64,000 nucleotides of DNA from Escherichia coli. GTDB taxonomy: Bacteria; Pseudomonadota; Gammaproteobacteria; Enterobacterales; Enterobacteriaceae. Made by a program: the position numbers and the translations under genes. Of the stretch, positions 12,182 through 15,037 are shown in pieces. The DNA lies in assembly GCF_044324785.1 (NCBI RefSeq), contig NZ_CP172127.1; one strand, 5' to 3'. Numbering within the stretch: the stretch's first letter is position 1; the number at the start of each line of letters is the position of its first letter. Below the pieces are notes generated by a model. It was given only the letters and a program-made list of their open reading frames with translations, had not been told where the DNA came from and made no database searches.

Positions 12182-13555
12182 TTATTTTAATAACCGCACC
12201 CGGCACGTTTTTCCTTTAATCTTCCCGCCCTGCAACTGTTTCCATGCTTTATGAGCAACAGCCTGACGCACCGCGACATAGACATGCGCCGGATGCACGG
12301 CGATTTTGCCAATATCTGCGCCATCAAGCCCGATATCTCCTGTCAGCGCACCTAATACATCACCCGGGCGCATTTTGGCTTTTTTCCCGCCATCGATACA
12401 TAACGTTGCCATTTCGGCTTCCAGCGGCACAATGGAACTATTAACTGGCGGCGTTTGCCAGTTAAGTTTTATCTGCAACATGTCAGAAATGATATTGGCC
12501 CGCTGTGCTTCTTCCGGGGCACAGAAACTGATCGCCAGACCGCTATTTCCTGCACGCGCTGTGCGACCGATGCGATGTACATGAACTTCAGGATCCCACG
12601 CCAGCTCAAAGTTCACCACCAGCTCAAGCGATTTAATATCCAGACCTCGCGCAGCAACATCAGTCGCAACCAGTACACGGGCGCTACCGTTAGCAAAACG
12701 TACCAGGGTCTGATCGCGATCGCGTTGCTCCAGATCGCCGTGTAACGACAATGCACTTTGCCCTACTTCATTCAGCGCGTCGCAGACAGCCTGGCAATCT
12801 TTTTTGGTATTGCAAAACACCACACAAGAGGATGGCTGATGCAAGCTTAATAACCGTTGCAACAGAGGAATTTTGCCTTTACTGGATGTCTCATAAAATT
12901 GTTGTTCAATGGGTGGCAAAGCATCTGTTGAGTCAATTTCAATCGCCAAAGGATCGCGTTGCACTCGTCCGCTGATTGCGGCGATGGCTTCCGGCCAGGT
13001 TGCCGAAAACAGAAGCGTCTGTCGAGATGCAGGCGCAAAACGGATGACATCATCAATGGCATCGCTAAATCCCATATCCAGCATGCGGTCGGCCTCATCC
13101 ATCACCAAAGTATTCAGCGCATCCAGTGATACCGTGCCTTTTTGCAAGTGATCCAGCAAACGACCCGGCGTTGCCACGATAATATGCGGCGCATGTTGCA
13201 ACGAATCACGCTGCAAACCGAACGGTTGACCACCGCACAACGTCAAAATTTTGGTATTTGGCAGAAAACGCGCCAACCGACGCAATTCACCTGCCACCTG
13301 ATCCGCCAGTTCACGCGTAGGACACAGCACTAAAGCCTGGGTTTGAAATAGCGACGCATCAATTTGCTGTAACAAGCCGAGGCCAAAAGCCGCCGTTTTG
13401 CCGCTGCCGGTTTTCGCCTGCACGCGAACATCTTTTCCGGCAAGGATCGCCGGAAGCGCGGCGGCCTGCACCGGCGTCATGGTTAAATAACCCAACTCAT
13501 TAAGGTTCGTGAGTTGGGCGGGAGGCAAAACATTCAGGGTAGAAAAAGCGGTCAC
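12182..13555 (-). CDS. dbpA: DEAD-box RNA helicase DbpA (23S rRNA hairpin 92 dependent)
   Basis: 457-aa ORF with Walker A AKTGSGKT, the DEAD box (VMDEADRM), SAT and HRIGRTAR motifs. The start codon is GTG at 13555. Confidence 0.95.
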   Translation of the reverse strand: MTAFSTLNVLPPAQLTNLNELGYLTMTPVQAAALPAILAGKDVRVQAKTGSGKTAAFGLGLLQQIDASLFQTQALVLCPTRELADQVAGELRRLARFLPNTKILTLCGGQPFGLQRDSLQHAPHIIVATPGRLLDHLQKGTVSLDALNTLVMDEADRMLDMGFSDAIDDVIRFAPASRQTLLFSATWPEAIAAISGRVQRDPLAIEIDSTDALPPIEQQFYETSSKGKIPLLQRLLSLHQPSSCVVFCNTKKDCQAVCDALNEVGQSALSLHGDLEQRDRDQTLVRFANGSARVLVATDVAARGLDIKSLELVVNFELAWDPEVHVHRIGRTARAGNSGLAISFCAPEEAQRANIISDMLQIKLNWQTPPVNSSIVPLEAEMATLCIDGGKKAKMRPGDVLGALTGDIGLDGADIGKIAVHPAHVYVAVRQAVAHKAWKQLQGGKIKGKTCRVRLLK

Positions 13556-13584
13556 AATCTATTCTCGTGGTCATCGACGCAAAG

Positions 13585-13758
13585 TTAGCAGGCGCGTATC
13601 CTCGCAGATCTACGCTCACGATGCGACAATTTAATCGGTTCTTCATCGGGTGGTGGGTCAGGCATGGGTTGCGGGCGAGGGATTGGATCGGGCACAGGAA
13701 CAGGATCGCCAGGAATCGGTTCAGGGACAGGAATTTGCAAATAAATAAGTGTCGTCAT
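13585..13758 (-). CDS. Hypothetical 57-aa proline-rich small protein / possible dbpA leader ORF
   Basis: Hand translation gives MTTLIYLQIPVPEPIPGDPVPVPDPIPRPQPMPDPPPDEEPIKLSHRERRSARIRAC*. The ATG is preceded by GGAGGGAAAT (strong SD, good spacing). The ORF ends 29 nt before the dbpA GTG. It is below the 60-aa cutoff of the ORF track. I recognise no homolog. Confidence 0.4.
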   Translation of the reverse strand: MTTLIYLQIPVPEPIPGDPVPVPDPIPRPQPMPDPPPDEEPIKLSHRERRSARIRAC

Positions 13759-13815
13759 ATTTCCCTCCGGTCATTGGGTGGACTCTTAAAGGGTAGACGC
13801 TGATAAATAACAGGC

Positions 13816-13843
13816 AAAAAAAAGCCGACTCATCAAAGTCGGC
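13816..13843 (-). terminator. Intrinsic terminator on the minus strand, about 190 nt downstream of zntB
   Basis: The minus strand reads GCCGACT-ttgatg-AGTCGGC followed by TTTTTTTT (A8 run at 13816-13823 on the plus strand). Confidence 0.7.
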
Positions 13844-14032
13844 GTCGTACGAATCAATTGTGCTATGCAGTAATTCAAAAAAGGAAGTAAGACAATATGG
13901 AGCGCAACGCCCATCGCTTGACGTTGCATTCACCTGCAAGGGAGATATTGCCCTGAATGGGTAGAGAGTTTATTGACTTCGCTCAAACTTTGCGGCGTTT
14001 TTGTATACAGACAGCCGGAAAAATTGCTTTTG

Positions 14033-15037
<1,005 letters not shown>

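Follow-up and report, generated by a model that had tools for sequence, protein, structure and literature searches.

The proline-rich small-protein gene ynaL of Escherichia coli overlaps the dbpA promoter at its 3' end

A short, proline-rich open reading frame with a strong Shine-Dalgarno (SD) sequence lies directly upstream of dbpA, the gene of the ATP-dependent RNA helicase DbpA, on the minus strand of the 64,000-nucleotide stretch of Escherichia coli DNA analysed here (contig NZ_CP172127.1, called the window below). Two readings of this ORF were put forward in an initial annotation: it could be a leader peptide that couples expression of dbpA to translation elongation or EF-P status, or it could be a genuine small protein. 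Which of them is correct was examined by comparing the ORF with annotated proteins and published data, by following its conservation in related species, and by locating the start of the dbpA transcript relative to it.

Identity and translation of the ORF upstream of dbpA

The minus-strand order in this part of the window is zntB (14033-15016), a gap, the ORF and then dbpA (Table 1), and the translation of the ORF is MTTLIYLQIPVPEPIPGDPVPVPDPIPRPQPMPDPPPDEEPIKLSHRERRSARIRAC. On re-reading of the sequence, the location given in the initial annotation was exact, with the TAA stop (13587-13585) separated by 29 nt from the dbpA GTG at 13555; the DPPPDE run, the strong SD ahead of the ATG, and the weak SD (GAGAA-type) which alone precedes the GTG of dbpA were likewise found as described. 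The proline content had been put at about one residue in three. The protein is indeed proline-rich, but the overall figure is slightly lower (16 of 57 residues, 28%), with 16 prolines among the 32 residues from 10 to 41. Within DPPPD, three strong EF-P motifs overlap, namely DPP, PPP and PPD. A 'separate intrinsic terminator' had also been placed upstream of the ORF; its hairpin and T-run (13843-13816) are real, but they are not free-standing, for the terminator scan and the Rfam match together show them to be the terminator of the FnrS sRNA.

The ORF product matched the Pfam family PF23677 ('Protein YnaL-like') end to end, residues 1-57 being aligned with profile positions 1-57, and scored 136.9 bits where the cut-off is 27 (E = 2e-40). 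Its K-12 counterpart is b4743 (NC_000913.3, 1409308-1409481; YP_009518775.1 / WP_001296046.1), flanked by fnrS and dbpA and named 'proline-rich small protein YnaL' by NCBI. The window protein is identical to that of K-12, the DNA differs at synonymous sites only, and the locus order fnrS - ynaL - dbpA is the same in both. By megablast the ynaL region was found in 5392 of 5426 complete E. coli genomes, with the CDS annotated as ynaL among the records listed. The ORF is the already catalogued small-protein gene ynaL and not a new one.

Translation of ynaL is supported in published data by three methods from two laboratories. An initiation peak in tetracycline profiling (TetRP) sits exactly at the ynaL ATG (v2 1407332; Nakahigashi 2016), that is, at position 13758, where such a peak had been sought; in the same study the identical peptide, under the name 'IVP7', was fused to Venus in the genome and assayed. 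A chromosomal C-terminal SPA fusion was later detected by immunoblot, and the gene was then named YnaL, with the remark that it adjoins dbpA (VanOrsdel 2018). Since full-length, C-terminally tagged YnaL is made in the wild type, wild-type ribosomes pass the PPP codons and reach the C-terminus of the protein. The second of the two original readings, a genuine small protein, was therefore right and is documented by annotation, Pfam, the TetRP peak, the Venus fusion and the SPA blot. No paper on the function of YnaL was found in our literature search.

The ynaL mRNA could come from read-through at the FnrS terminator or from a weak promoter. A candidate promoter is located just past that terminator, in a conserved GTCTACCCTwwAAG element, and its spacing and motifs are conserved. 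It fell under the threshold of the promoter scan, and the entries for this region in the transcription start site (TSS) map of Kim et al. (2012) hold no TSS there, nor any from the fnrS start to the dbpA TSS. No terminator was detected between ynaL and dbpA by the terminator scan; therefore a bicistronic read-through mRNA is possible.

Table 1. Features of the fnrS - ynaL - dbpA region (positions in the window)
Feature	Position	Strand	Basis or remarks
FnrS sRNA	13820..13937	-	Rfam RF01796, 134.8 bits, gathering score 60, model positions 1-119
Candidate ynaL promoter	13790..13817	-	TTGCCT (13817-13812), 16 nt, TACCCT (13795-13790)
ynaL Shine-Dalgarno GGAGGG	13763..13768	-	4 nt ahead of ATG
ynaL CDS, 57 aa + stop	13585..13758	-	ORF list, RefSeq annotation, Pfam PF23677, published sequence
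Pro/acidic core D18-E40	13639..13707	-	peptide-level purifying selection, judged from codon positions
PPP codons P35-P37	13648..13656	-	inside DPPPD, strong EF-P-dependent motif class
dbpA promoter, -50..+1	13589..13639	-	embedded in ynaL codons 40-57; from the Kim et al. (2012) entry
Promoter block 1	13620-13638	-	
Hypervariable spacer	13611-13619	-	fixed length
Promoter block 2	13591-13610	-	
Extended -10, TGc-GAGGAT	13598..13606	-	TG 13606-13605, hexamer 13603-13598
Mapped dbpA +1	13589	-	middle G of ynaL codon Cys57; K-12 v2 1407501, v3 1409477; from the Kim et al. (2012) entry
Rest of dbpA 5'UTR	13556..13588	-	ynaL stop at +3..+5; weak SD GAGAA
dbpA CDS	12182..13555	-	GTG start; ATP-dependent RNA helicase DbpA

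Conservation of the core and of the 3' end of ynaL

The dbpA 5' regions of 32 other Enterobacteriaceae species were collected with the N-terminus of DbpA, not the ORF, as bait; 33 sequences were used for comparison of the ORF and 38 for comparison of the promoter block described below. A YnaL-type ORF precedes dbpA in Citrobacter, Salmonella, Enterobacter, Klebsiella, Raoultella, Leclercia, Kosakonia, Pseudescherichia, Pseudocitrobacter and Intestinirhabdus, among others. Among the dbpA-upstream regions compared, those of Kluyvera, Yokenella and Morganellaceae lack it. A protein search returned 164 homologues from many genera of Enterobacteriaceae; every one of them is enterobacterial and matches PF23677. 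An SD-like purine motif (mostly GGAGG, in some sequences GGGAG or AGGAG) and the ATG are kept in 33 of 33 sequences, and the frame is open in all of them across a near-unalignable N-terminus of 14-24 residues. From D18 onward the alignment runs up to the stop region without any indel, and DPPPD is unchanged in 31 of the 33 sequences.

The codons of D18-E40 (DPVPVPDPIPRPQPMPDPPPDEE) show an entropy of about 0 at positions 1 and 2 and of 0.85-1.96 bits at position 3. Across species this core follows the pattern DPxPxPDPxPRPQPMPDPPPDEE, in which the prolines and the acidic residues are the invariant columns. Its pN/pS was 0.158 at a saturated pS of 0.63, to be compared with 0.089 at a pS of 0.62 for dbpA. 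Judged by this codon pattern, codons 18-40 are selected as peptide, namely as an acidic X-Pro repeat of 23 residues with DPPPDEE at its end. Conservation of the frame across Enterobacteriaceae, which had been named as a check on the ORF, was thus found, together with purifying selection on the core.

A different pattern was observed after the core. In codons P41-H46 and R50-A56 the third positions are invariant too (entropy 0). The nine nucleotides between these two invariant blocks are hypervariable, and TAG, TAA or TGA stops, which are tolerated nowhere but in this spacer, shorten YnaL to 44-50 residues in at least three lineages. In Kluyvera the SD and the Pro-rich part are lost, while the two invariant blocks are kept at the same spacing. 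Because the third positions are invariant and the block outlasts truncation or loss of the ORF, conservation of the C-terminal third of YnaL is conservation of DNA and not of protein.

The dbpA promoter and its bearing on the leader-peptide question

A single TSS is given for dbpA in the Table S1 entries of Kim et al. (2012), at v2 1407501; it is supported by 126 reads and leaves a 5'UTR of 34 nt. This map was obtained by TEX-enriched 5'RACE-seq from mid-log cells in glucose minimal medium, so that it represents one dataset and one condition. The -50..+1 sequence listed there, ACCGATTAAATTGTCGCATCGTGAGCGTAGATCTGCGAGGATACGCGCCTG, is identical to block 1, spacer and block 2 of the ynaL 3' end. 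According to this entry, the dbpA mRNA begins 4 nt short of the end of ynaL. Among the 38 sequences the majority-base fraction is 0.94 from -49 to -31, 0.57 from -30 to -22 and 0.97-0.99 from -21 to -2, and it drops past +1 to 0.82 and then 0.70. The extended -10, TGc-GAGGAT, is invariant in the 38 sequences save for single substitutions in two of them (L014, L026) and for the free n; the hexamer has A at position 2 and T at position 6, in addition to the extended TG. The -35 is weak and its assignment uncertain: the best candidates are GTCGCA (3/6) at 18-nt spacing and TTGTCG 20 nt from the -10. The block otherwise has the features of a sigma-70-type promoter, for which an activator or an extended -10 mechanism may be required. 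A consensus promoter scan of the window called no promoter at this block, the mapped promoter being below the scan thresholds. In Yokenella the homologous sequence is TCTGC-TAGCAT, also an extended -10, and in Proteus and Providencia (Morganellaceae) the promoter scan did call an element, ACGACA-N17-TATCAT, about 40 nt ahead of the dbpA GTG, from which GAGGAT in E. coli is equally far. A second copy of the invariant block was not present in the E. coli genomes searched. Codons 40-57 of ynaL are passenger translation of the dbpA promoter, from the -35/upstream block to the GC-rich discriminator.

This discriminator is 8 nt long (ACGCGCCT) and separates GAGGAT from G(+1). With the established start position of rrn P1, rrnH P1 consists of TATAAT, GCGCCTCC and then A, against GAGGAT, ACGCGCCT and G in the dbpA promoter; the two have GCGCCT in common and start 9 nt past the hexamer. 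The -10 and the -35 of dbpA are much weaker than those of rrn P1, with the extended -10 TG instead. Exponential-phase cells contain more DbpA (PMC13393375), and the rrn-P1-like discriminator suggests that dbpA may be under growth-rate or stringent control. What is new at this locus is that the 3' end of ynaL overlaps a conserved, rrn-P1-like dbpA promoter.

If ynaL were a cis leader peptide, low EF-P would stall ribosomes at DPPPD, and the translation or transcription of dbpA would be altered as a consequence. Several features favour this: the near-invariance of DPPPD with its three strong EF-P motifs combined, the spacing from PPP to the conserved block, free of indels in every species, the GTG and weak SD of dbpA with a start codon predicted to be partly paired, the ynaL-dbpA gap without a terminator, and the Rho-dependent polarity that arises downstream of polyproline motifs upon loss of EF-P (PMC5021804). 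However, with the mapped TSS in the last sense codon of ynaL, the dbpA mRNA of the Kim et al. entry lacks the ynaL ribosome-binding site, ATG and PPP, and ynaL therefore cannot be the leader peptide of that transcript. The conserved block 3' of PPP is that promoter and not an RNA partner. Pairing of block 1 with the GUG had a mean probability of 0.08 and was predicted for just three species, E. coli among them; in many species a local partner, C(G/A)CGA, is predicted for the GUG. Nor was a consensus alternative structure obtained (RNAalifold -3.5), and a ribosome stalled at PPP left the predicted accessibility of the dbpA start unchanged at 0.48, against 0.49 for free RNA; a terminating ribosome gave 0.51, and masking of the entire ORF 0.59. 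In addition, Kluyvera and Yokenella retain the promoter and dbpA without a Pro-rich ORF, and the full-length tagged protein accumulates in the wild type. Thus ynaL does have a motif that is difficult to translate, conserved and fixed in position, but the ORF lies outside the mapped 5' leader of dbpA and no ribosome-dependent alternative structure was seen. Our literature search found no mechanistic link of ynaL or dbpA to EF-P, although proteomics shows EF-P, like DbpA, to be higher in exponential phase (PMC13393375). The EF-P-coupled leader peptide of the initial annotation is accordingly not supported, with the mapped mRNA lacking the ORF, no RNA switch and no modelled effect of a stall, and we regard it as quite improbable; a cis effect of ynaL translation on dbpA that is limited to read-through bicistronic transcripts is rather unlikely. 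A variant in which the acidic/Pro run causes intrinsic ribosome destabilization (IRD), sensitive to Mg2+ and bL31 as for MgtL and MgtQ, and thereby exposes C-rich read-through RNA to Rho or alters coupling to dbpA, appears extremely improbable. The YnaL sequence PDPPPDEEP does fit the 'proline-intermitted acidic' IRD class, which includes EPDPTP of MgtL and DPDPEPE of YagN (PMC11162784), mgtQ is a precedent for such a uORF raising downstream translation (PMC8092293), and the RNA of the core is rich in C and poor in G throughout the species, with means of 0.42 and 0.25. But this C-richness follows automatically from Pro codons, of which CCG is dominant in most species, with no synonymous bias to keep C. 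The motif of YnaL spans residues 13-41, whereas the strongest IRD is reported for motifs close to the N-terminus (PMC11162784), and here too the dbpA mRNA of the Kim et al. entry lacks ynaL and the full-length tagged protein is made.

Alternatively, the invariant 3' block might be mainly an RNA element, an AUCU-GNRA-GGAU hairpin in the dbpA leader which would be bound by a protein or sRNA. A small GNRA-capped hairpin is predicted in nearly all species, its sole loop change, GCGA to GAGA, keeps the GNRA, and in 14 of the 38 sequences the spacer outdoes 90% of its shuffled versions in pairing with the invariant GCGCCUG. The hairpin is nevertheless upstream of the +1 given by Kim et al. and hence missing from that dbpA mRNA; the C-to-A change of the loop coincides with the free n of TGn, conservation ends at +1, and block 1 is left unexplained by a hairpin. 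There was no two-sided covariation and no convincing consensus fold by alifold (-3.5). The block is neither similar nor complementary to 23S rRNA, the target of DbpA, and it matched no Rfam family up to E = 10: at gathering level the search gave FnrS only, and the permissive search at E = 10 one chance match to a human lncRNA model. An RNA element of this kind is very improbable. That the ORF is merely a chance, non-functional frame in an intergenic region has practically no probability left. It is small and of low complexity and resembles the TonB polyproline region in composition only; but the kept SD, ATG and open frame across genera, together with the pN/pS of the core, mean that it is not a chance ORF, and its translation by three methods in two laboratories had already refuted this reading. 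Mimicry of, or pairing with, 23S rRNA at hairpin 92, the DbpA target, was considered separately and rejected, as both-strand local alignments to rrlH were no better than shuffles. Taken together, the ORF is the known gene ynaL, with a 3' end overlapping the dbpA promoter; it probably encodes a separate small protein and is unlikely to be a leader of dbpA.

Likeness to known systems and possible role of YnaL

Among known systems, the leader ORFs of Mg2+ transporter genes come close to ynaL. MgtP, the mgtCBR leader ORF, is sensitive to EF-P and tRNA-Pro. Like ynaL, the ORFs of MgtL (mgtA leader), MgtP and MgtQ (mgtC-mgtB intergenic) are short, rich in Pro and Asp/Glu and located beside a downstream gene, and they carry motifs that ribosomes translate with difficulty, either because EF-P is needed or because the ribosome is intrinsically destabilized; the composition of YnaL matches these two classes. 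In contrast to ynaL, where the mapped dbpA TSS coincides with the last codon and alternative structures were neither conserved nor predicted, these ORFs lie within the regulated mRNA and overlap alternative stem-loops. With the arrest peptides SecM, TnaC and MifM, YnaL has in common an N-terminus that varies, a core of some 23 invariant residues, which could fill the exit tunnel, and a dispensable C-terminus, as well as a position upstream of a translation-related gene. It differs from them in that the full-length protein accumulates, the conserved DNA downstream is a promoter, and no SD-sequestering hairpin is opened by a stalled ribosome in the model. The polyproline spacer of TonB resembles YnaL in its alternating X-Pro with acidic residues and in its rigid, extended polyproline-II (PPII) type; this match is one of composition only (20.8 bits in NCBIfam, where the cut-off is 315, and 11 against 33 for Pfam TonB_N), and YnaL has no TonB domains.

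An AlphaFold model of YnaL from a 31-sequence alignment had a pTM of 0.22, with one short N-terminal helical turn and otherwise no regular secondary structure; local confidence was confined to the Pro-rich segment. The model indicates that this segment may be an extended PPII-type peptide with no globular fold. If YnaL acts on anything, it would be expected to act in trans as such a peptide. We give about even chances to an action of this kind in trans, for which DbpA or the ribosome are candidate partners by neighbourhood. A more specific proposal, which we consider unlikely, is that the core PRPQPMPDPPPDEE is a sensor or effector tied to ribosome biogenesis, either as nascent chain or as free peptide. 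As a nascent chain, EF-P-dependent or destabilization-prone translation of ynaL would set the supply of ribosomes and RNA polymerase to dbpA, and this would work on fnrS/ynaL read-through transcripts when the internal promoter is off, as in the stringent response for instance. As a free peptide, the core would be a PPII ligand of DbpA or of the 50S subunit. If this proposal were true, one 174-nt gene would hold both a selected peptide and the promoter of its neighbour.

For annotation, these results change nothing, because ynaL is already present in RefSeq, in EcoCyc-style K-12 annotation and in Pfam. A plausible story of EF-P and a leader peptide is largely undercut by an existing TSS map. 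The apparent conservation of the C-terminal third of YnaL is conservation of a promoter and not of a peptide, leaving the Pro/acidic core alone as the probable functional peptide. With the dbpA promoter inside the 3' end of ynaL, deletions of ynaL or C-terminal tags on it will perturb that promoter and so disturb dbpA. Finally, the rrn-P1-like, GC-rich discriminator offers a testable route by which the ribosome-assembly helicase DbpA may come under growth-rate control.

Possible sources of ynaL mRNA

A candidate ynaL promoter (see the table) is formed by the last bases of the FnrS U-tract and a conserved element that follows the FnrS terminator and precedes the ynaL Shine-Dalgarno sequence (SD). 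In the TSS list of Kim 2012 there is no entry at 13790-13817, and therefore ynaL mRNA might alternatively be derived from FnrS read-through. The annotated mini-ORF ynaN is intact in the window.

Promoter elements and a mini-ORF in the window
Feature	Position	Strand	Remark
dbpA promoter, -10 to +1	13589-13606	minus	8-nt GC-rich discriminator ACGCGCCT
Conserved element GTCTACCCTwwAAG	overlapping 13790-13817	minus	between FnrS terminator and ynaL SD
TTGCCT-N16-TACCCT (candidate ynaL promoter)	13790-13817	minus	GTCTACCCTwwAAG plus end of FnrS U-tract
ynaN, 15 aa	15030-15077	minus	ends 13 nt upstream of zntB

Variants and disruptions of ynaL

In the Salmonella enterica YnaL homologue P0053 (70 aa; alignment A1), the Pro-rich core carries an internal duplication of 10 residues, PIPDPRPHPQ, which shows that in-frame expansion of the repeat can occur. 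In Shigella flexneri SFBU1023 (locus L059), ynaL is disrupted (MTTLIYLQVPVPGPIPGDPVPVPDWISSP...), and the match to the DbpA N-terminus begins only at residue 12, with 88% identity; the locus is probably decaying in this strain. In E. coli STEC388 (genome match H1, NZ_CP041425.1), an IS1A insertion splits the fnrS-ynaL-dbpA region into two pieces.

The record titles of three dbpA-upstream loci (L002, L043, L044) are at odds with their content. The locus of 'Enterobacter hormaechei B17-3' is 99% identical to E. coli. In 'Vagococcus sp. WN89Y' and 'Chryseobacterium sp. 18061', the fnrS-ynaL-dbpA or dbpA loci are of enterobacterial type. All three assemblies are probably mislabelled or contaminated.

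Regions upstream of dbpA without ynaL

In seven Kluyvera loci (L024, L025, L027, L029, L032, L033, L036), the ynaL SD and Pro-rich core are deleted, about 120 nt upstream of dbpA, and yet the two invariant blocks of the dbpA promoter are retained. What remains of ynaL still offers a 14-codon ORF, (M/L)SHxxxRSARIRAC, for which an SD is not evident. In Yokenella regensburgei (L051), the position of ynaL is taken by an unrelated 43-aa Lys/Asp/Glu-rich ORF, MSNTPKSEEEQVKEVKDAPNKQGEIPRKRDDSKDDKKDPFKAS, which has a good SD and ends 81 nt upstream of dbpA; downstream of it lies a dbpA promoter homologue with a better -10, TGC-TAGCAT. The Morganellaceae loci (L047, L048, L050, L052-L055, L057) have no small ORF upstream of dbpA. 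They carry, about 40-70 nt upstream of the gene, a strongly conserved block, CCTCACGACA...GATAGTATCATT, called by the promoter scan as ACGACA-N17-TATCAT, which is probably the dbpA promoter of that family.

Discriminator of the dbpA promoter

Transcription of dbpA starts 9 nt downstream of the -10 hexamer. The geometry of this promoter, with its GC-rich discriminator of 8 nt, is like that of rrnH P1 (TATAAT-GCGCCTCC-A), and this match suggests that dbpA may be under stringent or growth-rate control. Higher DbpA abundance in exponential phase was reported in a 2026 proteomics paper (PMC13393375).
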